DNA of 40,622 nt from an uncultured Verrucomicrobiales bacterium (GCA_937983475.1 CALJZV010000351.1:1-40622), one strand, 5' to 3'; positions 2,803-31,374 are shown, counted from the first letter of the stretch. A program made the numbers and translations. The notes: generated by a model from the letters alone, not told the origin.

Positions 2803-2904
2803 ATACCATTGGTGTAATAAACGATCCCCCTGGCTTCGATTCCAACTCCCCCTTGGTAAGCTTTGACATTAAGGCATGAAACTGGCATTCAAGCTACCAG
2901 ACCA

Positions 2905-5900
2905 ATGCCTTTGGATCCCTCACAAGAAGATTTCAAATACTGGGCATTCATCAGCTACAGCCATTCCGATGACAATTGGGCGGAATGGCTGCACAAGGGC
3001 TTGGAAACGTATAAGATTCCCAAACGCCTTATCGGCAAGCCCAGTCGCGAAGGTATTGTTCCCCGCCGCGTCTTTCCTGTCTTTCGAGACCGAGACGAGC
3101 TACCCGGTTCGGCCAACTTGGGTGACAACATCGAGTCAGCCCTCCGCCTGTCGCGCTATCTCATCGTCATCTGCTCACCCCGCGCGGTCCATTCCAAGTG
3201 GGTGGACAAGGAAATCCGCATGTTCAAATCCTGGGGGCGTGAAGACCGCGTCCTGTGTTTGGTCGTGGATGGCGAGCCCAACGCCAGTTCCTTTCCTCAA
3301 CTGGGCCAGCAGGAGTGCTTTCCCGAAGCCATTCGTTATTGGGTGGACCACGAGCAGCGCATCACCGAAATCCCCACCGAACCCATCGCCGCCGACGCGC
3401 GCAAGGGCAAGGACGGCAAGCGCAATGCCCTTTTGAAACTGCTGGCCGGAATCATTGGCGTGGACTTTGACGCGCTGAGGCAGCGAGACCATGAGCGCGA
3501 GGAACGCCAGCTAAAAATCGTTTTGGCCACCGCCTTCATTCTGCTGTTCATCTTTTCAGTGCTGGGCGTGGGCTTTTACTTTCAGCGAAATGAAGCCATC
3601 CGCTCCAGAAATGTTGCAGAAATCGAGCGTGTCCGCGCTGAACAGGCCCGCGCTCGAGCGGATTTGGAACGGGCCGCGGCCGAAGAAGCCAGGGACCTCG
3701 AGGCCCGCGCCAAGGAAGAGGAGCGCGCCGCCCGCGAACAAGCCGAAGCCGCTGCGGCGGCGGAACGTGAAGCCAAAGTGGTCGCTGAGCAGGCCCGGAA
3801 AAAGGAAGAACTGGCCCGAGTTCAGGCCGAGCAGGCCCGGCGCGGAGAGGAGCAGGCCCGGTTAGCGGCGGAAGAGGCCCGCATTGCAGCTGAAAAGGCC
3901 GAACTGGAAATGCGCCGCACGCTCTCAGTTTCAGATCTCACCTCCGCCGGCAGGCTCATTGACGAGAATAACGAAGCCATCGCCATGGCCTATTTGTCGC
4001 GAGCCTTGCGCTACGATCCCGGCAACCCCGCCGTAGTCAGCCGCGCCGTCTCGCTTCTGTCGCAACGAAACTGGCCGCTCCCCGCCATGGAGCCCATTCG
4101 CCACGAATCCGAAGTAAGCTTGGCGCTGTACAGTCCGGATGGACGATGGCTGGCAACTGTCGCTGGCTCAACGGTGAGAATCTTGGATTCCGGAAACGGT
4201 AATTTGGCGTGTTCTCCGATGGTTCATGGTCAAAAAATCAATTCCGCAACATTCAGCCCGGATGGAAAACTGTTGCTGACTGCTTCGGACGACGGCACCG
4301 CACAATTGTGGAACATTCCCACAGGCACCCGGAACGGTGCCCCCATTACCCACAAAGACCGGATACTTTACGCCGTCTTCAGCAGGGATGGCCATTGGAT
4401 TGGCACCGCTTCCCAGGACAAGTCCGCCCGCGTCTGGGACGCTGCAACCGGAAGTCCTGTGACGCCGCCATTGCAACACGACGGTCCTGTCCGCGTGATT
4501 CTTTTCAACCCTGTCGGAAAATCCGTTCTGACCACATCAGTCAACACGGCACGAATCTGGGACGTCACAGCGGACCATTCTGTTGGAATGGCCATGGCAC
4601 AGGATGGTGGCGTTTATTCTGCCGATTACAGCCCGGACGGGCGCTATGTGGCGACCGGCTCCGGCGACCGCACCGCCCGCCTTTGGAATGCGATCACCGG
4701 GGAATTGGTTGCCGAGCCGCTCAAGCACGACAATTGGGTTTTCATGGTCAAGTTCAGCCCGGATGGCCGCCATTTATTGACTGCTTCAAGCGATACCAAA
4801 GCTCGAATCTGGGATGTTTCAAGTCGCCAACAGGTGGGTGCTTCCATGAAGCACGAGGGCGGCGTCAACACCGCTGTCTTCAGCCCAAATGCCCGGTGGA
4901 TTGTCACATCTTCCGCCGATGGCACCGCCCGGGTTTGGGATGCTTTTAGCGGCGAAATGATCGCCGCACCGACGCGGCCCAACGCGCCGGGGCGGCAGGC
5001 GCACTTCAGTCCCGATGGGCGCCGGGTGACCACCGCATCTGCTGACGGGACAGCGCGCATCTGGAGCATTGTGAACAGCAAACCGGGCGTCCTGGCCCTT
5101 GAGCATGACCAACCGCTTAACGGCGTTTCCTTCACCCCGGATGGCCGCCATTTGATTTCCTTCTCCGCCGACCGAACCGCCAAAGTCTGGGATGTGGCAA
5201 CCGGCAGAAAAGCCATTGAACCGCTTCGCCATAAAAAATCCATCGGCGCAATCGCCATCAGCCCGGCTGGCCGGTTTTTGGCGACCGGCTCGGATGATTT
5301 CACCGCACAGGTTTGGGAGTTGTCCACGGGCATGCCCGCGTTCTCTCCACCCCTGGAGCATCAAGGCGTCGTGACAAGCGTCCAATTCAGCCCGGATGGC
5401 CGCAGGCTTCTCACAGCGTCCGACGACCGCCGTATCCGCCTTTGGGATCTTTCAACAGGATCAATGAGCATCGAACCCCTCAGACACGAGGGCGAAATCA
5501 AAGCCGCGCAGTTCAACGCCGACGGGCAATTTATTGTCACTGCCTGCTCAGACAGAAAGGGCCGAATCTGGTCTGCCAACACCGGCAAGTTGCTGGCCTC
5601 TGTTTCACATGGAGCTGAGGTGCGCAGCGTGGCGATAAGCCCCGATGGGCGTTGGCTGGCGACCGGCTCGGAGGACAGGACGGCGCGTATATGGGATGCT
5701 GCTTCCGGCAGGCCGATCACCGATCCCCTGCCCCACGATGGCCCTGTGAACAGCGTGGTGTTCTCTCCGAAATCAACGTGGCAGGACAACAAGTGGATCC
5801 TCACCGCGTCGGACAAAATCCTTCGCCTGTGGGAAGCCCCCTCCGGCAAAGCGGTCACCGAACCGATGAAGCACAACGAAACCATTCGCTCCGTCCAATT

Positions 5901-7071
5901 CAGCCCGAACGGCGAATTCCTCCTTTCCGCCGCTGGCAAATCCGTCCAGGTCTGGGACCGAAGCGGAAAGCCGGTGGCAGAGCCGCTGATTCACGACGGT
6001 TCCGTCAAGCAAGCCGTATTCAGTCCCGATGGCACTTCCATCGCCACGGCGGCCAGCGACCAAAAGGCGCGTGTCTGGTTCTTCTCGCCGCGCGGCACCG
6101 CCCCGGACTGGCTCGTCCAATTGACCACCGGCATTGCACGTTACAAGTTGGATGATTTTGGCGCCGCTGAATATATTCACGATACCTGGTCTCAATTGGA
6201 AACCTTGAAAGCCTCGTTCAACGTGCCGTCACCCGGCGACCAATACACGCAATGGGGCCGCTGGCTCCTCACCGACCGCCTCGCCAGAAATCTTACGCCG
6301 TTCAACGCCATTCCCGTGTCTGACTACATTGATCAACAAGTTGCGGAAGGATCGCCTACCAGCCTCAAAGTTGCCCTTGATCTTCAGCCGGATCACGCCT
6401 TGGCCCTGGCGAAAACCGCCCGCCTTTCGCTTACCACGGAAGAAGCCGAATACCTCTCCATACTGGCCGAGCGTTACGCCCCAACGAACCCCGATGTGTT
6501 GTGGTTGCGTGCCCTCACGCTCCAACGCTTCAATCGACTGGCTGAGTCCTGGTCTGTCATGGAACGGGCCATTCAATTCGACCCAAGGGCCGGCGTCACT
6601 TTTGGCCCCACCGGCTTCACAATGCATCAATCAAAAGACAATGGCGCGGTGGTGCGCGGCTGGATCCCCTTGGGATGGATCCCGCATAATTCCACCCCCC
6701 TCCTCGATGCCCATTTTTCCAAAGTGGAGGAAGTGCCCCAACCGGGCTTGACGGCCATCGAATTGCGGTTGGATGGGCCAAACAAGGGACAGACAGAGCT
6801 GCGCGGTCCCAGGGTCATCTGCCAGCGCTACAACAAATGTGTCATCGAAGGTTGGGTCCGCAGCCCGATCAAGTCCGACCTGGGGGTGACGATTGCTCAA
6901 TTCGTGGATCCCGCCCAGAAATATCGCGAACAACTGGTTCGCACGACGCCTGAATGGAAACGCTTTCGCATTCAATATACACCCACCCAAAACATCGCCT
7001 CCGAGGTGAGATTGTTTGCCAACACCGGTGCGCATCTTCAAGTCGCCAGTGTGACCGTCCGCGTGGAATGA
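2905..7071 (+). CDS. TIR domain / single TM helix / coiled coil / 16x WD40 repeat / C-terminal TPR-like and beta-rich domain protein
   Basis: The track ORF 2863..7071 starts at TTG. The first in-frame ATG is at 2905 (MPLDPSQEDFKYWAFISYSHSDD). See the domain sub-features below. The ORF is unbroken, with strong protein repeat periodicity. Confidence 0.9.
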   Translation: MPLDPSQEDFKYWAFISYSHSDDNWAEWLHKGLETYKIPKRLIGKPSREGIVPRRVFPVFRDRDELPGSANLGDNIESALRLSRYLIVICSPRAVHSKWVDKEIRMFKSWGREDRVLCLVVDGEPNASSFPQLGQQECFPEAIRYWVDHEQRITEIPTEPIAADARKGKDGKRNALLKLLAGIIGVDFDALRQRDHEREERQLKIVLATAFILLFIFSVLGVGFYFQRNEAIRSRNVAEIERVRAEQARARADLERAAAEEARDLEARAKEEERAAREQAEAAAAAEREAKVVAEQARKKEELARVQAEQARRGEEQARLAAEEARIAAEKAELEMRRTLSVSDLTSAGRLIDENNEAIAMAYLSRALRYDPGNPAVVSRAVSLLSQRNWPLPAMEPIRHESEVSLALYSPDGRWLATVAGSTVRILDSGNGNLACSPMVHGQKINSATFSPDGKLLLTASDDGTAQLWNIPTGTRNGAPITHKDRILYAVFSRDGHWIGTASQDKSARVWDAATGSPVTPPLQHDGPVRVILFNPVGKSVLTTSVNTARIWDVTADHSVGMAMAQDGGVYSADYSPDGRYVATGSGDRTARLWNAITGELVAEPLKHDNWVFMVKFSPDGRHLLTASSDTKARIWDVSSRQQVGASMKHEGGVNTAVFSPNARWIVTSSADGTARVWDAFSGEMIAAPTRPNAPGRQAHFSPDGRRVTTASADGTARIWSIVNSKPGVLALEHDQPLNGVSFTPDGRHLISFSADRTAKVWDVATGRKAIEPLRHKKSIGAIAISPAGRFLATGSDDFTAQVWELSTGMPAFSPPLEHQGVVTSVQFSPDGRRLLTASDDRRIRLWDLSTGSMSIEPLRHEGEIKAAQFNADGQFIVTACSDRKGRIWSANTGKLLASVSHGAEVRSVAISPDGRWLATGSEDRTARIWDAASGRPITDPLPHDGPVNSVVFSPKSTWQDNKWILTASDKILRLWEAPSGKAVTEPMKHNETIRSVQFSPNGEFLLSAAGKSVQVWDRSGKPVAEPLIHDGSVKQAVFSPDGTSIATAASDQKARVWFFSPRGTAPDWLVQLTTGIARYKLDDFGAAEYIHDTWSQLETLKASFNVPSPGDQYTQWGRWLLTDRLARNLTPFNAIPVSDYIDQQVAEGSPTSLKVALDLQPDHALALAKTARLSLTTEEAEYLSILAERYAPTNPDVLWLRALTLQRFNRLAESWSVMERAIQFDPRAGVTFGPTGFTMHQSKDNGAVVRGWIPLGWIPHNSTPLLDAHFSKVEEVPQPGLTAIELRLDGPNKGQTELRGPRVICQRYNKCVIEGWVRSPIKSDLGVTIAQFVDPAQKYREQLVRTTPEWKRFRIQYTPTQNIASEVRLFANTGAHLQVASVTVRVE
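2935..3279 (+). other. TIR (TIR_2-like) domain of the 2905..7071 protein
   Basis: KYWAFISYSHSDDNWAEWLHKGLE...VFPVFRDRDELPGSANLGDNIESALRLSRYLIVICSPRAVHSKWVDKEIRMF...VLCLVVDGEP. The SxWxxxE(I/L) alpha-C motif is present, with the candidate catalytic Glu codon GAA at 3211-3213. Confidence 0.8.
3514..3582 (+). other. Predicted transmembrane helix of the TIR-WD40 protein
   Basis: KIVLATAFILLFIFSVLGVGFYF is a 23-residue hydrophobic stretch flanked by charged residues (RQRDHEREERQL upstream, QRNEAIRSRN downstream). Confidence 0.7.
3598..3912 (+). other. Ala/Glu/Arg-rich coiled-coil segment (repeated AEQAR-like motifs)
   Basis: ERVRAEQARARADLERAAAEEARDLEARAKEEERAAREQAEAAAAAEREAKVVAEQARKKEELARVQAEQARRGEEQARLAAEEARIAAEKAELE. 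The DNA shows recurring gagcaggcccgg. Confidence 0.7.
4096..6085 (+). repeat. Array of 16 WD40 repeats (protein-level repeat, diverged at DNA level)
   Basis: I counted 16 units of about 40-42 aa. Each has the pattern H.. V....FSPDG..L.T.S.D.TARIWD, for example FSPDGKLLLTASDDGTAQLWN, YSPDGRYVATGSGDRTARLWN, ISPDGRWLATGSEDRTARIWD. Confidence 0.9.
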
Positions 7072-7236: not shown

Positions 7237-10200
7237 ATGACCAGCGCCGAAATCCGACAATCGTTCCTCGACTTCTTCAAGTCGAAGCAGCACACCATCG
7301 TGCCGTCTTCGAGCCTCATGCCCGATTCGCCGAATCTGCTGTTCACCAACGCCGGCATGAACCAGTTCGTGCCGATCTTTCTCGGCCAGACCAAATGCCC
7401 CTACACGCCCGGGCGCGCCGCCGACACGCAGAAGTGCATCCGCGCCGGTGGCAAGCACAATGACCTCGACGACGTCGGCCTCGACACCTACCACCACACG
7501 TTCTTCGAGATGCTCGGCAACTGGTCCTTCGGCGATTACTTCAAAAAGGAAGCCATCGACTGGGCGTGGGAACTGGTCGTGGAGAAATGGAAATTCCCGC
7601 CGCAGCGTCTCTATGCCACTGTTTACAACCCGGACAAATCGAAGAACGACCCGAGCGAGTTCGACCAAGAGGCGTGGAACTTTTGGGCCGAGAAATTCCG
7701 CTCCGTCGGGCTCGATCCCGTCGTTCACATCGTCAACGGCAACAAGAAGGACAACTTCTGGATGATGGGCGAGACCGGCCCGTGCGGTCCATGCTCCGAA
7801 CTCCACGTGGACCTCACCCCCCGCCGGCACACCCAGGGGCCGCCCGGCCACCAGGGCCGCGGCGCGGGCAACGAGATTTGGAACCTCGTCTTCATCCAGT
7901 TCAACGCAAACCCCGACGGCTCGTTCTCGCCCCTGCCCGCCAAGCATGTGGACACCGGCATGGGCTTCGAGCGCGTCACCAGCATCATCCAGGGCACCAA
8001 AAACCTGACCGACTTTCAGAACGCGAAGATTTCCAACTACGAGACCGACATCTTCCGCCCAATCTTCGACGCCATCGAGAAACTCAGCGGCAAGAAATAC
8101 GGCAGCACGCTACCGCAAGTTTCGGGGAGCGCGACCGTCCCGGTCGCACCCGTCGGCGTCTCGCCAGCGGAACTCAACGAAAAGGGAGCGCGGGCGTCCT
8201 CGCCCGCCCCCGTTGGCGTCCCGCCAACGGAACCTTCCGCGCAGGGAGCAAAATATTACAAGCGACGCCTTCCGCATTTCGAGCGGCCTTGGGCCAAATA
8301 CATGATCAGTTTCTCAACCCATGACAGACGGCAACTTTCGCCTGAGGCGCGCGACATAGTCCTCAAGAGCCTTTTATTTGGCCACAACCAACGCCGTTAT
8401 CAGCTATATGCGGCTTGCGTGATGCCCGATCACGTTCATTTCCTTTTTGAGCCGCAGGTCAAGGAGCAGGACAAGGACGGCAAGCCGGTCTTTTGGCCGC
8501 TTCCCGAACTGCTCCACTCCATCAAGTCGTTCACGGCGCATGAGATTAACAAGCTGGAGAAAACGACCGGTCAGATTTGGGAAAATGAGTCATTTGACCG
8601 GATGCTTCGCGGTGACGCTGACCTTGAGGAAAAGTTTCATTACATCTGCCGCAACCCGTGGGATTCCGGCGTCGTTCCTCAAACCGAGAATTACCCGTGG
8701 TTGTGGACGCCCGATGCTGCTGCTGCGCGGGACGCGCAGCTGGGCGACCGGGACGGTCGCGCTCCCCAAAACAACGCTCCAGTTTCGCATGAGCAAATCC
8801 AGCTCGACGTCGCGTTCCGCGTCATTGCCGACCATATCCGCACGCTTTCGTTTGCCATTGCCGACGGCATCCAACCCGGCAACACCGACCGCAACTACGT
8901 CCTGCGTCGCATTCTGCGGCGCGCGGTGCGCTATGGCCGCACGCTCGGGTTCCACGAACCGTTCTTCTACAAGCTCGTGGACGTGCTCGCCGACACGATG
9001 GGCGATGTCTTCCCCGAAATCCGCGCCAAGAAGAAGCATGTGCAGGAGGTGATCCGCGTGGAGGAGGAGGCGTTTAACAAGACGTTGGATAAAGGCATTG
9101 CATTGCTGAATGAGGCCATGGAATTCGCAGTCACAGCCTCCATGTATAGGCGGGACGTCGGTTACGCCACCGGAGGTGGATCTATTTCAGATTTCGAAAA
9201 GGAAGGTGATGACGTTGATGTATTCGTAATGCTTGAACTTCCTGGCAGAGGCATTGTTAAAGCTATTTCGGGAGACCTCGCCTTCAAGCTCTACGACACT
9301 TACGGCTTCCCTCTCGACCTCACCGAATTGATGGCGCGGGAGCGCGGCCTGACGGTGGATAAGGAAGGTTTCGAAAAGCTGATGGAGGAGCAGCGTGCCC
9401 GCGCCCGCGCCGCGCAGAAAAAGGAAGTCATTTCGCTCTCACAAATCGAGACCACAACGCCCACCAGGTTTGTCGGCTTCGACACGCTGGAAACCGATGC
9501 CAAGGTGCTCGAAGTCGTGTCGCTCAAGGCCAAAAACGCTGTCATTCTCGACACCAGCGCCTGCTACGCTGAAATGGGCGGCCAGGTCGGCGACACCGGC
9601 GAACTGGAACACGGCAGCCAGCTCTGGCGCGTGGTCAACACCCAAAAAAGCGGCAACACCTGGCTCCACTTTATTGAAGGCGGCGATGCCCCTGCCGTCG
9701 GCATGACTGTGACACTTGCGGTGGGCAAGCCGCGCCGCCAGGCGATTCAGCGCCATCACACGGTGACACATTTGCTGCACTGGGCGTTGCACGAGGTCGT
9801 CAGCAAGGAAGCCTCGCAGAAAGGTTCCTTCGTCGGCCCGGACAAATTGACCTTTGACTTCAACAGCGCCCCGCTCACGCCACAGCAGGTGGCTGAGATC
9901 GAAAAGCTCGTCAATGAGCGGATTCTCGAGAACGCACCAGTGTCGTGGACGGAGGTCAAATACGCGCACATCAAGGAGCGCAAGGACATCATGCAGTTCT
10001 TTGGCGAGAAATACGGCGAATGGGTCCGTGTCGTCCAGATCGGTGGCAAGCCGACCGGCCTGGACGGCTATTCCATGGAACTGTGCGGCGGCACCCACGT
10101 GCGCAACACCGGCGAAATCGGCCTGTTCCGCATTACCGGTGAAAGCGCCATCGCCGCCGGCGTGCGCCGCATCGAAGCGGTCGCGGGGCTGGTTGCTTAT

Positions 10201-10713
10201 GACAAAATAAAAGAGAACGCTCAGCTCATCGAAGCCGTGGCCGGGAAAGTCAATTCCCCTGTCGGCGAACTGGAAAAGAAAATTGAGGCGCTGCTGGCGC
10301 AGCAAAAGGAACTGGAAAAAGCATTGCGCGCGGCCAATCAACGCCAGGCCGCCGGACGTGCAAAGGAATTAATCGGCGCCGCCAAAACAATCAGCGCCAC
10401 ACCAGCCATTATCGAAAACCTCGGTGACGCCGACGGCGACACGCTTCAAGCCATTGCCGATGCGCTGAAGACGCAGTTCAAGGGCGTGATCGTGTTGGGC
10501 GGCGCGACTGGCGGCGCGGTGGCGCTGATTGCGGCGGTTTCGCCCGAATTCACGGCCAAAATCCAGGCCGGCAAACTCATCCAGCAGATCGCGCCAATCG
10601 TGGGCGGCAAGGGTGGCGGCAAGCCGGACAATGCGCGCGGCGGCGGAAAAGACGCCTCCAAATTGAACGAAGCGCTGGCCAAGGCGTCTGAAATACTGTG
10701 CGGCCTCACTTGA
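7237..10713 (+). CDS. alaS: Alanine--tRNA ligase (AlaRS) carrying two in-frame insertions
   Basis: Conserved AlaRS blocks seen: MTSAEIRQSFLDFFKSKQH, FTNAGMNQF, HHTFFEMLGNWSFGDYFK, GPCGPCSELH, DTGMGFERV, RVIADHIRTLSFAIADG, NYVLRRILRRAVRYG, FKLYDTYGFPLDLTE, editing-domain HTVTHLLHWALH and CGGTHV, and C-terminal GGKGGGKPDNARGGG. The track ORF begins at 7165, but the canonical N-terminus starts at ATG 7237. The product is 1158 aa, against 876 aa for E. coli AlaRS. Confidence 0.95.
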   Translation: MTSAEIRQSFLDFFKSKQHTIVPSSSLMPDSPNLLFTNAGMNQFVPIFLGQTKCPYTPGRAADTQKCIRAGGKHNDLDDVGLDTYHHTFFEMLGNWSFGDYFKKEAIDWAWELVVEKWKFPPQRLYATVYNPDKSKNDPSEFDQEAWNFWAEKFRSVGLDPVVHIVNGNKKDNFWMMGETGPCGPCSELHVDLTPRRHTQGPPGHQGRGAGNEIWNLVFIQFNANPDGSFSPLPAKHVDTGMGFERVTSIIQGTKNLTDFQNAKISNYETDIFRPIFDAIEKLSGKKYGSTLPQVSGSATVPVAPVGVSPAELNEKGARASSPAPVGVPPTEPSAQGAKYYKRRLPHFERPWAKYMISFSTHDRRQLSPEARDIVLKSLLFGHNQRRYQLYAACVMPDHVHFLFEPQVKEQDKDGKPVFWPLPELLHSIKSFTAHEINKLEKTTGQIWENESFDRMLRGDADLEEKFHYICRNPWDSGVVPQTENYPWLWTPDAAAARDAQLGDRDGRAPQNNAPVSHEQIQLDVAFRVIADHIRTLSFAIADGIQPGNTDRNYVLRRILRRAVRYGRTLGFHEPFFYKLVDVLADTMGDVFPEIRAKKKHVQEVIRVEEEAFNKTLDKGIALLNEAMEFAVTASMYRRDVGYATGGGSISDFEKEGDDVDVFVMLELPGRGIVKAISGDLAFKLYDTYGFPLDLTELMARERGLTVDKEGFEKLMEEQRARARAAQKKEVISLSQIETTTPTRFVGFDTLETDAKVLEVVSLKAKNAVILDTSACYAEMGGQVGDTGELEHGSQLWRVVNTQKSGNTWLHFIEGGDAPAVGMTVTLAVGKPRRQAIQRHHTVTHLLHWALHEVVSKEASQKGSFVGPDKLTFDFNSAPLTPQQVAEIEKLVNERILENAPVSWTEVKYAHIKERKDIMQFFGEKYGEWVRVVQIGGKPTGLDGYSMELCGGTHVRNTGEIGLFRITGESAIAAGVRRIEAVAGLVAYDKIKENAQLIEAVAGKVNSPVGELEKKIEALLAQQKELEKALRAANQRQAAGRAKELIGAAKTISATPAIIENLGDADGDTLQAIADALKTQFKGVIVLGGATGGAVALIAAVSPEFTAKIQAGKLIQQIAPIVGGKGGGKPDNARGGGKDASKLNEALAKASEILCGLT
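8124..8233 (+). repeat. Two tandem ~50-nt REP-like units, each with two hairpins (left flank of the RAYT module)
   Basis: Unit A (8124-8173) is ggggagcgcgaccgtcccggtcgcacccgtcggcgtctcgccagcggaac. Unit B (8183-8233) is agggagcgcgggcgtcctcgcccgcccccgttggcgtcccgccaacggaac. Hairpins: 8131-8147 (7 bp, loop tcc), 8150-8170 (imperfect, loop tct), 8190-8207 (7 bp, loop tcct) and 8210-8230 (9 bp, loop tcc). Confidence 0.8.
8722..8767 (-). repeat. Inverted copy of the REP-like two-hairpin unit (right flank of the RAYT module)
   Basis: Hairpins gctgcgcg-gga-cgcgcagc (8722-8740) and gcgaccg-gga-cggtcgc (8744-8760), then gctcccc. The reverse complement begins with the same 24 nt as unit A. Confidence 0.8.
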
Positions 10714-30096: not shown

Positions 30097-31374
30097 TCAA
30101 AATGCCTTCCCGCAGGAGACGCGGTACCGAGCCTCTGACTTTCGGTCCCCAGACTTCCCCAACTCGATGACGGCCAAAGCGTTCATCGCCGCCTTGGGAA
30201 TCATGGAGCTGACTTCCACATATTCCTGCTCCTTGGTGCCGTCGGGGCTCTGCTCCGAGCAATGGGCGTTGTCGCCGTTGGGCCCCAGTCCGTCCAGGGT
30301 GGGAACTTTATGGCAAATAAAATTGCCGTCGCTGATGCCGCCCCGCTCCTCCCGCACGGCAGCCAGGCCCATGGCGCGGCTTGCAGCGCTCCAAAGCTGA
30401 AACAGCCGCTCGGTCTTTTCATTTTTCGGCCAGGGCGGACTTTCCTGGGTGATTTCAATTTTTATGCGGCAGGGATGCTCGTCGTCGGCGCTTTTGACCG
30501 AGGAGAGGCTGTTCAACGCCATCAATGCCCGGACGCCTTCCCGGTAGGTGTTCATGTCAAAGGTGCGCATTTCCCCTTCGGCCACCGCCTCGTGCGGCAC
30601 CCGGTTGAGCCCGGCGCCGCCGGAAATGATGCCGACATTGTAGGTCAGTTGCTTTGAGTAGTCGGTCAGCGCAGCGATGCGCTGAACGGCATCGGCCAGC
30701 TGCACGACGGCGTTGGCGCCCCGCTCGTGATGGGAACCGGCATGCGCCCCGCGTCCTTCCGCAGTCACCCGGAACACGGCCCGCCCTTTTCGCGCCGTCA
30801 CGAACGCGTAGGTGTCACCGTTTCGAGCGCCGGCCTCGAACACCAGCGCCCCCAGACAATTCTCCCCCAGACGGTCCAGGCACAGTTTGCCAAAGTCATG
30901 GGACATGACTTCCTCGGAGGAGTTGAGCAGGACCACCCAGTTCATTTCCTCAAAAATTTCCGGCGCGAACTTCATGATGCCCAAAAGCGTCATGTGCAGC
31001 ACGACCGTGCCGCCCTTGATGTCCACGGTTCCGGGCCCGTAAATTCGGTCCCCGGCAGGCCGCCAGGAAAAGTGGTTCCGCTGCTCCTCCTCGGCGGGAT
31101 AAACCGTGTCCAGGTGCGAAATCAGCCCGATGGTCTTGCTGGTCCGCCCCTTTTTGGTCAGCACCAGGTGCTCCCCGAAATCCGGGCGAACGGAGGCCAC
31201 AAATTCGGCCTTGAACCCGAGTTGTTCAAATTCGGCCGCGGTGACCTGGCCCTGCTCGTTGACGCCGGGTTTGTTGGTTGTAAAGCTGTTGATTGCCACC
31301 AGCTTTTTCAGCAACTCCAGTTCGCCTGGAAGCTGCTGTTCTAAGTAGGCCTTTAATTCGTCGTGAAGTTTCAT
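30097..31374 (-). CDS. M20 family metallopeptidase (carboxypeptidase G2-like)
   Basis: LLKKLVAINSFT, metal-binding GLISHLDTVYP, YGPGTVDIKGG, LLNSSEE and a dimerisation-domain insert. 425 aa. Confidence 0.85.
   Translation of the reverse strand: MKLHDELKAYLEQQLPGELELLKKLVAINSFTTNKPGVNEQGQVTAAEFEQLGFKAEFVASVRPDFGEHLVLTKKGRTSKTIGLISHLDTVYPAEEEQRNHFSWRPAGDRIYGPGTVDIKGGTVVLHMTLLGIMKFAPEIFEEMNWVVLLNSSEEVMSHDFGKLCLDRLGENCLGALVFEAGARNGDTYAFVTARKGRAVFRVTAEGRGAHAGSHHERGANAVVQLADAVQRIAALTDYSKQLTYNVGIISGGAGLNRVPHEAVAEGEMRTFDMNTYREGVRALMALNSLSSVKSADDEHPCRIKIEITQESPPWPKNEKTERLFQLWSAASRAMGLAAVREERGGISDGNFICHKVPTLDGLGPNGDNAHCSEQSPDGTKEQEYVEVSSMIPKAAMNALAVIELGKSGDRKSEARYRVSCGKAF

Follow-up and report, generated by a model that had tools for sequence, protein, structure and literature searches.

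A REP-associated tyrosine transposase carried in frame within the alanyl-tRNA synthetase gene of an uncultured Verrucomicrobiales bacterium

The DNA considered here, referred to below as the window, is a 40,622-nucleotide stretch from an uncultured Verrucomicrobiales bacterium (GCA_937983475.1 CALJZV010000351.1:1-40622), and it carries an alaS gene, encoding alanyl-tRNA synthetase (AlaRS), that contains the coding region of a REP-associated tyrosine transposase (RAYT; REP, repetitive extragenic palindrome) between two arrays of REP hairpins. The alaS frame (7237-10713, + strand) is open throughout for 1158 codons plus a stop codon, the insert included, in agreement with an initial annotation that had been made from the sequence alone. 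The identity of the host gene is secure, as the encoded protein scores 831.8 bits against TIGR00344 (cut-off 457), matches Pfam tRNA-synt_2c, tRNA_SAD and DHHA1, and retains the AlaRS editing motifs HTVTHLLH and CGGTH. The features of the locus, including the insertion point (site A) and a second hot spot (site B) recognized by comparison with relatives, are as follows.

7237-10713, + strand: alaS coding sequence; open frame matching TIGR00344 and Pfam tRNA-synt_2c, tRNA_SAD and DHHA1
7237-8118, + strand: AlaRS aminoacylation domain as far as GKKYGSTLPQ, the left host flank of site A; tRNA-synt_2c, residues 5-289
8119-8247, + strand: left REP array, read as the linker VSGSATVPVAPVGVSPAELNEKGARASSPAPVGVPPTEPSAQG; four hairpins and a 45-nt direct repeat
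8124-8147, + strand: left terminal inverted repeat (TIR), GGGGAGC followed by hairpin 1 (GCGACCG-TCC-CGGTCGC); perfect inverted repeat with 8744-8767
8248-8715, + strand: RAYT domain, AKYYKRRLPHFE...WLWTPD; matches NF047646 and the fold of 4er8_A
8716-8772, + strand: right REP array in inverted orientation, read as ...AAAARDAQLGDRDGRAPQ; hairpins at 8722-8740 and 8744-8760, right TIR at 8744-8767
8773-10713, + strand: remainder of AlaRS, comprising the helical tRNA-recognition domain, the editing domain (HTVTHLLH, CGGTH) and C-Ala/DHHA1, from profile matches
9124-9252, + strand: site B, occupied by a 43-codon segment, FAVTASMYRRDVGY...LELPGRG, without a RAYT; G+C content 49%

The host AlaRS block FRPIFDAIEKLSGKKYGSTLPQ stops at 8118 and the block HEQIQLDVAFRVIADH begins at 8788. 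Alignment to an empty allele from a related genome (L123) defines the unoccupied site and reveals 217 extra codons (651 nt, 8119-8769, plus or minus one codon) between GKKYGSTLPQ, which extends to 8118, and NNAPVSHEQIQLDVAFRVIADH, close to the approximately 215 codons estimated at the outset. The distance from FRPIF to RVIADH is correspondingly 256 residues, versus 39 in relatives that are free of the RAYT. When aligned with E. coli AlaRS (3hxu), site A corresponds to a short loop, AVAKVTGA|TDLSNK|SLRVIADH, that joins the aminoacylation fold to the helical tRNA-recognition domain, and site B corresponds to LDEELAKLS|GD|TLDGETAF. The difference in base composition that had been counted by hand as about 53% versus about 65% G+C was measured as 52.8% at 8281-8460 and 65.0% at 9301-9360; by part, the RAYT core has a G+C content of 53%, the alaS flanks 59-60% and the hairpin linkers 73%.

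The initial annotation had noted that the module lacks both an ATG ahead of RRLPHFE, the first being that of KYMISF, and a stop codon. This observation can be extended, in that no in-frame ATG, GTG or TTG is present from 8119 to the methionine of KYMISF, and a promoter scan revealed no promoter-like site within alaS. Thus, having no promoter-like site, start or stop of its own, the RAYT is readable only within the alaS frame. A scan of the whole window against Rfam returned zero family matches, and hence no intron, ribozyme or other known RNA accounts for the insert.

The inserted codons were originally assigned to a Y1 transposase of the HUH superfamily on the basis of short motifs, and profile searches bear out this assignment. 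The insert alone matches the NCBIfam model REP_Tyr_transpos (NF047646; E value 1e-22, 80.6 bits, cut-off 80) over positions 4-145 of 146, and Pfam Y1_Tnp (PF01797) with 25.5 bits (cut-off 23), although these margins are small, and the domain falls just under both cut-offs when scored within the whole protein (76.5 and 21.3 bits, respectively). The RRLPHFE block (8263-8283), the H-V-H motif (8431-8439), ESFDRMLR (8587-8610) and the tyrosine codon of FHYICRNP (8641-8643) all reside where they had first been placed, and the putative active-site residues are H399-V-H401 and Y469 in AlaRS numbering. The HUH and tyrosine residues are invariant in 34 aligned sequences and at least 98% conserved in 128 domains. 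An AlphaFold2 model of the RAYT domain (pLDDT 80.6, pTM 0.76) was compared with known structures by using Foldseek, and the E. coli RAYT in complex with REP (4er8_A; E value 8.8e-7, TM 0.63) ranked first among PDB entries, followed by the IS200, IS608 and ISDra2 TnpA proteins; a PDB sequence search with the same domain gave zero matches. Pfam detects no helix-turn-helix (HTH) in the RAYT domain, which stops approximately 20 residues past the tyrosine helix, and no intein or Hint family in the window protein. The residues at the junctions are encoded by the REPs and vary (Q|VSGSAT, T|ALGSTG, P|SGSASA). The insert contains no second open reading frame (ORF), and this RAYT is the single copy in the 40.6-kb window.

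A full-length AlphaFold2 model is poor (pLDDT 61, pTM 0.40), but within it the RAYT is folded confidently (pLDDT 80-92) between low-confidence stretches at residues 291-349 and 492-515. These stretches match the expectation for a domain that would be held on flexible tethers. With respect to the arrangement considered in the initial annotation, in which the insert projects from the loop preceding the RVIADH helix, the mapping onto E. coli AlaRS places the insert in an inter-domain loop, whereas the full-length model is too poor to place the RAYT relative to the active site or the tRNA.

The DNA on either side of the RAYT core is rich in palindromes. The perfect 24-nt inverted repeat reported at first (8124-8147 / 8744-8767) occurs nowhere else in the window, where none is expected from shuffled sequences, and it extends to 46 nt at 83% complementarity (8119-8164 / 8727-8772). 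Each 24-nt arm is itself a hairpin, GCGACCG-TCC-CGGTCGC, and belongs to a set of six, of which four lie on the left (8131-8147, 8151-8169, which is imperfect, 8190-8207 and 8210-8230) and two lie on the right in the opposite orientation. DNA folding yields z scores of -3.2 for the left array and -3.8 for the right array. The left flank is composed of a 45-nt direct repeat unit with a 60-nt in-frame spacing, and its length in relatives differs in steps of 30 or 60 nt. Of the six perfect hairpins of the terminal type in the window, five fall within the RAYT flanks, versus 0.17 expected. Outside these flanks, the window has a single perfect hairpin with a GGA loop, AAGTCATG-GGA-CATGACTT at 30893-30911, and it is probably unrelated to the REP family, because it is AT-rich and does not carry the GGGGAGC tag.

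The left 24-nt terminus also flanks the RAYT in two relatives, L001 and L122, and its sequence forms the constant part of a REP that is dispersed in related genomes. The 20-mer AGCGCGACCGTCCCGGTCGC was compared with one genome per species, a procedure that provides a lower bound, and it matches at least 119 stretches; those listed are nearly all from Verrucomicrobiota, Limisphaerales or Pedosphaera metagenome-assembled genomes (MAGs), often from several contigs per MAG, and the MAGs with a dispersed REP include some whose alaS bears a RAYT. When 130 REP copies are aligned in register, TGGGGAGC, hairpin 1, a 3-nt spacer and hairpin 2 are common to all, while the surrounding sequences are unrelated. 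In hairpin 2, the apex CGTCYCG is conserved, and the 10-bp stem shows compensatory changes and many pair types, such that pairing is observed in 96% of cells, versus 58.5% (maximum 62%) in column shuffles. Both flanks of the RAYT carry this same two-hairpin structure, and the insert therefore constitutes a REPtron, namely a RAYT placed between inverted copies of a REP that is dispersed in related genomes. A second hairpin family, GTTTCCCGCG-N4-CGCGGGAAAC, preceded by GGGGAGC and a hairpin, flanks many of the cassettes found at site B; it too is dispersed, as 52 of 80 copies in metagenome contigs are located away from alaS and from any RAYT.

The REP contains no stop codon in any of its six frames. 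Many dispersed copies reside in short open stretches and others within long ORFs, where they are translated in the frame of landing to give peptides such as GSATVPVA, ERDRPGR, ARPSRS, DRDGRAP, TGTVAL and RPGRSRS. A solo REP of the same family, read as GARPSRSQFGASR..., is also present in frame at a third point in AlaRS, immediately downstream of NTWLHFIE; 21 of 123 RAYT-bearing and 0 of 103 RAYT-free AlaRS proteins have it, a comparison in which kinship is ignored. Carriers include L001, L122, L039, L053, L073 and L105, and the window is empty at this point (9655-9681, NTWLHFIEG). A further solo REP occurs in the C-Ala domain of L055. A minority of the AGCGCGACCGTCCCGGTCGC matches listed are in MAGs labelled Actinomycetota, Bifidobacteriaceae, Nioella, Limnocylindria, Saccharimonadales, Deltaproteobacteria or Acidobacteriota (for example L005, L015/L029, L021, L044, L048, L062, L074, L075 and L079). 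Mis-binned contigs or chance matches to GC-rich DNA are suggested as the source of these, given that L055, which is labelled Methylomirabilota, encodes a Verrucomicrobia-like AlaRS C-terminus.

Selection on the insert was assessed by comparing the codons of the window with those of L122 and L001, both of which have a RAYT at site A. The ratio of nonsynonymous to synonymous differences (pN/pS) is 0.07-0.11 for the RAYT core at a pS of 0.63-0.71, and both the aminoacylation domain (0.13-0.20) and the remainder of AlaRS (0.23-0.33) are under looser constraint. The hairpin linkers exhibit a different pattern, with a pS of 0.00-0.18 (0.05-0.18 on the left and 0.00-0.08 on the right, compared with 0.5-0.7 in the codons next to the left array and 0.5-0.76 elsewhere) and a pN/pS of 0.4-3.3 or undefined. 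The near disappearance of synonymous differences from the linkers, in which amino-acid changes are relatively frequent, indicates a constraint on the DNA and not on the peptide. As the RAYT protein sequence and the hairpin DNA are both kept, a decaying insertion or a dead alaS is ruled out.

These data also bear on the concern that the arrangement is an artefact, either a chimeric assembly formed through repeats or a dead alaS whose function is supplied by a backup copy. The window is a single metagenomic contig from which alone its alaS copies are known, and REP-like repeats can mislead assemblers. Nevertheless, the same architecture is present in 123 AlaRS proteins (site A, site B or both) from other Verrucomicrobiota assemblies, contigs of 1-2.6 Mb among them, and the window gene has an intact frame, a TIGR00344 score of 832 bits and AlaRS codons under purifying selection (pN/pS 0.13-0.33). 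This explanation is effectively refuted, and the inactivated alaS that the initial annotation had listed as one option is contradicted by the same evidence.

Among relatives of the window protein, the fusion is widespread but patchy. The best 120 matches to the whole protein are 1084-1408 residues in length, are all from Verrucomicrobiota and all contain a complete RAYT, located at site A in 69, at site B in 44 and at both in 7. Site B lies between EEEAFNKTLDxGI..F and AFxLYDTYGFP, and its loop holds a full RAYT cassette in 54 relatives; in the window the corresponding segment, FAVTASMYRRDVGYATGGGSISDFEKEGDDVDVFVMLELPGRG, has an unusually low G+C content, includes no RAYT or REP hairpins and has no counterpart in L122 or L123. 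A search with an AlaRS query from which both inserts had been cut out revealed that 103 of the best 120 core matches (74-84% identical) are without a RAYT, at equal or higher core identity. In total, 226 AlaRS proteins gave 131 RAYT hits, each covering at least 156 of 168 positions and all inside AlaRS, and a sensitive search for decayed or partial RAYTs in the 103 RAYT-free proteins gave noise only (E value above 1). Divergent AlaRS proteins, one of them from Terrimicrobiaceae, hold RAYTs in the same two loops that are only 43-57% identical to that of the window, and RAYT-bearing AlaRS proteins thus span orders of Verrucomicrobiota (Limisphaerales, Terrimicrobiaceae). Both loops are permissive in general, and RAYT-free relatives carry tandem peptide repeats or an unrelated insert of approximately 110 residues. 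At site A, P0030, P0338, P0362, P0374 and P0337 have tandem peptide repeats, such as multiple VNPESLG units or LEQLRTDLESLRAGSE-like sequences, and at site B a helical module of approximately 110 residues is found in P0004, P0035 and P0007/P0101.

This distribution is pertinent to the proposal that the insert is a self-removing intervening sequence, in which case a functional AlaRS would require removal of the insert either by precise excision of single-stranded DNA in some members of the population or, at the RNA level, by a bypass or processing that uses the 24-bp terminal stem. The perfect terminal inverted repeat, the all-or-none presence of the RAYT with no decayed remnants, the retention of the native loop in empty alleles and the precise excision typical of IS200/IS605-type Y1 enzymes are features that such an element would share. 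However, the RAYT codons are under selection in the frame of alaS, no Rfam family is present in the window, and there is no Hint or intein domain and no constancy of the junction residues. Moreover, all 131 of 131 RAYTs are complete inside AlaRS and the window copy has no start or stop of its own, which indicates that the RAYT must be translated through from alaS, and we know of no precedent for a translational bypass of 650 nt. We therefore consider self-removal very improbable, and obligatory removal, another option raised in the initial annotation, is neither needed nor supported.

Several comparisons suggest that the RAYT and its flanking REPs are mobile. Distances between RAYTs are uncorrelated with distances between the corresponding AlaRS cores (Spearman 0.06), and the RAYTs form two clusters, each of which is present at both sites. 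The AlaRS proteins P0007 and P0101 have cores that are 4.9% apart and an identical non-RAYT insert at site B, and yet their site-A cassettes contain RAYTs of different families that are 45% apart, with different TIRs and unrelated inverted-repeat peptides. A cassette at site A in P0028 and one at site B in P0006 are 93% identical, REP-encoded linkers included. The occurrence of different RAYT and REP families at one site in near-identical hosts, together with the occurrence of one family at either site, implies that the cassette moves as a unit, and it is on the P0007/P0101 and P0028/P0006 pairs that the case for mobility rests. The closest pair of filled and empty alleles, P0043 and P0302 (L128/L129), are 1.7% apart in protein and 95% identical in DNA and differ by one in-frame block of 684 nt, the ends of which consist of TTGGGGAGC plus a hairpin in inverted orientation.

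The same observations can be weighed against a scenario in which the cassette is an immobile relic, descended vertically from one or a few ancient insertions into alaS with many subsequent losses, and in which the RAYT still serves REPs but the cassette no longer moves. Consistent with this scenario, RAYT synonymous sites are as saturated as those of alaS (pS 0.63-0.71), and nucleotide identity between the window and L122, L001 or L123 shows no step at the cassette borders, with the RAYT and the N-terminal part of alaS both at approximately 76-92%. Given the lack of such a step, the low protein-level RAYT-versus-core distances of these pairs are not evidence of transfer. RAYTs are also classically single-copy and vertically inherited (PMC5581495; bioRxiv 10.1101/2021.07.10.451892). 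On the other hand, the relic scenario must contend with the presence of both RAYT clusters at both sites, the unrelated site-A cassettes in near-identical hosts that share a site-B insert, the 93% identity between a site-A and a site-B cassette, the uncorrelated RAYT and core distances, and the divergent RAYTs occupying the same two loops of divergent AlaRS proteins. On balance, an immobile relic seems unlikely to us.

AlaRS is not the only host of such domains. An exhaustive profile-free search with the 168-residue RAYT yielded 5684 relatives, and among the closest are many long proteins with the RAYT in the middle. Hosts identified at the protein level include RecG, PriA, ValRS, a ThrRS-like protein, PurH, CarB, shikimate kinase (aroK), ThiE, Ham1, a glycyl-radical enzyme and N6/N4 DNA methylases (P0128, P0134, P0140, P0149, P0176, P0221, P0226, P0247 and P0200/P0230/P0269), and Verrucomicrobiota are among the organisms that carry them. 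Several RecG proteins share one recurrent insertion point ahead of the IVIGTHAL motif, and the PriA fusion is found on 48 contigs. The DNA of two cases was inspected, and in both the RAYT lies in frame between long inverted repeats: the recG cassette (L124, 4064-4752) is bracketed by a 70-nt inverted repeat at 93%, and the valS cassette (L125, 1162-1707; a Phycisphaeraceae MAG, Planctomycetota) by a 27-nt inverted repeat at 96% with GGGG and a hairpin with a TCT loop. Two short RAYT ORFs that appear to stand alone, L126 434-1117 and L127 3001-3711, abut neighbours on the same strand with overlaps of 0-4 nt, the latter between an Amuc_1100-like pilus gene and the next gene. Such overlaps imply that these RAYTs also ride on a host transcription unit, and they suggest operon-nested, translationally coupled copies.

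An alternative interpretation of the fusion is that the RAYT is an exapted domain, recruited by the host to confer a new function on AlaRS, such as DNA binding or cleavage tied to translation status, or autoregulation, and kept for the benefit of the cell. Purifying selection on the RAYT that exceeds that on AlaRS, invariant catalytic residues and persistence across Limisphaerales and Terrimicrobiaceae would all be in keeping with exaptation, and RAYTs are generally viewed as domesticated, single-copy and vertically inherited (PMC5581495). In conflict with it are the 103 best core matches that manage without the RAYT, the switching between two loops, the replacement of one RAYT family by another at a single site and the appearance of the same cassette with inverted repeats in the unrelated RecG, PriA, ValRS, PurH and CarB. 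A role at the protein level would also leave the conservation of the hairpins at the DNA level unexplained. For these reasons, we view exaptation as an improbable explanation for the insert.

The interpretation that we favour, with moderate confidence, is that the insert is a REPtron living as an in-frame, translated passenger in a permissive inter-domain loop of alaS, thereby occupying an intein-like niche without splicing. Of the options listed in the initial annotation, a tolerated loop fusion fits best, in view of the strong purifying selection in frame and the lack of a start or stop in the insert, and its central claim, that an essential aminoacyl-tRNA synthetase (aaRS) gene contains a complete and apparently active HUH/Y1 nuclease as an internal in-frame domain, is supported. 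The present analysis adds to that account the wide but patchy distribution, the two sites, the membership of the flanks in a REP family dispersed in related genomes, the other housekeeping hosts and the hairpin within each arm of the inverted repeat.

Under the passenger interpretation, the ribosome would read through the insert to produce an AlaRS-RAYT chimera of approximately 127 kDa that could still charge tRNA-Ala, with the RAYT tethered by REP-encoded linkers of approximately 55 and 25 residues, which are modelled with low confidence in the full-length structure. By analogy with E. coli TnpA-REP (PMC3479197), the RAYT may bind REP hairpins on single-stranded DNA and cut and join them. This action would service and spread dispersed REPs and might occasionally move the entire TIR-RAYT-TIR cassette. 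An essential, constitutively expressed host gene would supply expression for the element, and would also shield it from deletion, given that an imprecise loss is lethal and cells survive only a precise one that keeps the frame. Excision at the DNA level is a plausible route of loss. The repeated use of the same loops could reflect a target preference or the survivorship of insertions that spare AlaRS.

A number of observations weigh against the passenger interpretation. In the L128/L129 comparison at site B, there is no clean TIR-to-TIR junction and no target duplication, and the loop itself has diverged. Identity is no higher across the RAYT than in the adjacent N-terminal part of alaS, and thus there is no sign of recent transfer into this lineage. 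When RAYT presence is placed on a neighbour-joining tree of the AlaRS core, at least 23 changes at site A and at least 36 at site B are implied, but these counts derive from a gene whose members are only 16-26% apart and are uncorrected for kinship. No REP copy is found outside the RAYT flanks in the 40.6-kb window, and dispersal is therefore seen in related genomes and not in this organism. A harmless projection of the RAYT domain from AlaRS is proposed on the basis of the loop mapping and not of a reliable model. Finally, we infer from sequence the translation of the AlaRS-RAYT chimera, its AlaRS activity and the activity of its RAYT.

If the passenger interpretation extends to the other hosts, RAYT cassettes might represent a hitherto unrecognised class of selfish elements in the PVC (Planctomycetes-Verrucomicrobia-Chlamydiae) superphylum that sit in frame without splicing, recurrently colonise permissive loops of essential genes (alaS, valS, recG, priA, purH, carB and others) and are expressed only as chimeras with host proteins. 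The AlaRS-RAYT chimera would then maintain dispersed REPs in Limisphaerales, in a DNA-level analogue of the intein lifestyle founded on an HUH single-strand nuclease. We advance this broader proposal tentatively, as a real possibility that falls somewhat short of being probable.

Two other observations concern alaS and its surroundings. At 7826-7876, within the catalytic domain, a 17-residue patch, RRHTQGPPGHQGRGAGN, takes the place of the clade-conserved xGDTKGSLVNKGDARCI; it is of equal length, has many G/C-ward substitutions and loosely resembles the E. coli loop GGPPGSPEEDGDRY. A compensated frameshift was considered for this patch and rejected, as the consensus is not restored in any other frame. 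Just upstream of alaS, a gene at 2863-7071 (+ strand) codes for a protein of 1402 residues in which Pfam detects 11 WD40 stretches, which form a long beta-propeller array. Its N-terminus by eye resembles a Toll/interleukin-1 receptor domain (FISYSHSDD...) and is succeeded by a coiled stretch rich in Ala, Glu and Arg. This protein may be of a signalling or defence type.

In agreement with the initial annotation, which knew of no such description, full-text literature searches yielded no paper that reports a RAYT or other Y1 transposase within the ORF of an aaRS or of any different host gene, although an earlier mention elsewhere is possible. Surveys of Y1 transposases have dropped "unexpectedly long proteins" as fusions or errors (PMC6006769). 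Users of annotation should be aware that pipelines, JGI among them, label such proteins "alanine--tRNA ligase-related".

RAYTs serve in textbooks as the case of a transposase that has been "domesticated", stands alone and is stably inherited, and inteins are the textbook selfish element residing in frame in essential genes. REPtrons and RAYTs are said to have been described by Nunvar in 2010 and by Ton-Hoang in 2012, and palindromic elements within protein-coding genes of Rickettsia were reportedly described by Ogata in 2000. To our knowledge, transposition of a REP by a RAYT has yet to be demonstrated in vivo.

The locus is a real feature that is considerably broader than was first apparent. 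By comparison with these systems, it is a RAYT and REPtron by its enzyme and flanks, and it departs from them in one defining trait, the stand-alone gene. As in the REPtrons of E. coli and other bacteria (TnpA-REP; E. coli YafM structure 4ER8; Bertels and Rainey, 2011, PMC3116915; Messing, 2012, PMC3479197), the enzyme has an HUH/Y1 fold and is under purifying selection, its coding region is bracketed by inverted REP hairpins, and the flanking REP, which in known REPtrons is dispersed in the same genome, is here dispersed in related genomes. Whereas a known RAYT is a gene by itself, with a start and a stop, the RAYT of the window has neither and forms an internal domain of AlaRS. Classical RAYTs are stable and vertically inherited, whereas the AlaRS RAYT has a patchy distribution in close relatives and switches from one of two loops to the other; and the classical REP is tagged with GTAG, whereas the REP described here comprises GGGGAGC and two hairpins.

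TIRYTs, or TIRtrons (Di Nocera, 2013, PMC3733652; subclass 2.1 of Quentin, 2018, PMC6006769), likewise combine a Y1 transposase with long terminal inverted repeats, and their TIR motif, GGGG[AT][CG]A[CG], matches GGGGAGCG of the window at 7 of 8 positions. Most TIRYTs of subclass 2.1, however, have a C-terminal HTH and no nearby REP, whereas the element in alaS has no HTH, its TIR consists of two REP hairpins of which dispersed copies exist, and it is nested in frame; on account of the missing HTH and the dispersed REPs, it was not assigned to this subclass. Elements of the IS200/IS605 group and IStrons share the Y1 HUH superfamily and hairpin ends, and precise excision is plausible as a route by which the alaS cassette is lost. 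Yet IS200/IS605 elements are multi-copy, have distinct left and right subterminal hairpins and often carry tnpB, IStrons carry a group I intron, and TnpA-IS200 has a Y-x3-Q tyrosine motif (PMC6006769). The insert described here is a single copy in the window with inverted-repeat ends, a Y-x3-N motif (HYICRNP), no tnpB and no group I intron. An IS200/IS605 insertion sequence was accordingly rejected on the basis of the single copy, the inverted ends and the Y-x3-N motif, and, because the insert is read through, alaS is not disrupted as it would be by such an insertion. Rickettsia palindromic elements and other REPs within ORFs (PMC3733652) resemble the cassette in being in-frame palindromic repeats, found in tRNA synthetases among other genes, that are translated as extra peptide; those are non-autonomous repeats only, whereas here the enzyme gene itself is part of the in-frame insert.

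The closest parallel in lifestyle is provided by inteins, which are located in frame in housekeeping genes (aaRSs, helicases, glycyl-radical enzymes and methylases) without expression signals of their own, are sporadic among close relatives, occupy sites that are reused by divergent elements and can be deleted viably only with precision. Inteins differ in having a Hint domain and conserved Cys/Ser/Thr or His-Asn junctions, all of which are missing from the insert, where there is no sign of splicing and an intein was rejected for lack of the Hint domain. They also reside in active-site motifs and encode a LAGLIDADG or HNH homing endonuclease, in contrast to the variable surface or inter-domain loops and the single-stranded DNA HUH nuclease of the cassettes. 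The alaS locus thus unites the RAYT and intein ideas in a transposase that is an aaRS domain without its own expression signals, that is gained and lost as a unit and whose host loops are reused. If the chimera is active, it would provide a natural, testable system for the action of RAYTs on REPs and an example of mobile DNA that persists without horizontal spread, and it would demonstrate a tolerance for large domains in loops of AlaRS, ValRS, RecG and PriA that could be used in protein engineering.

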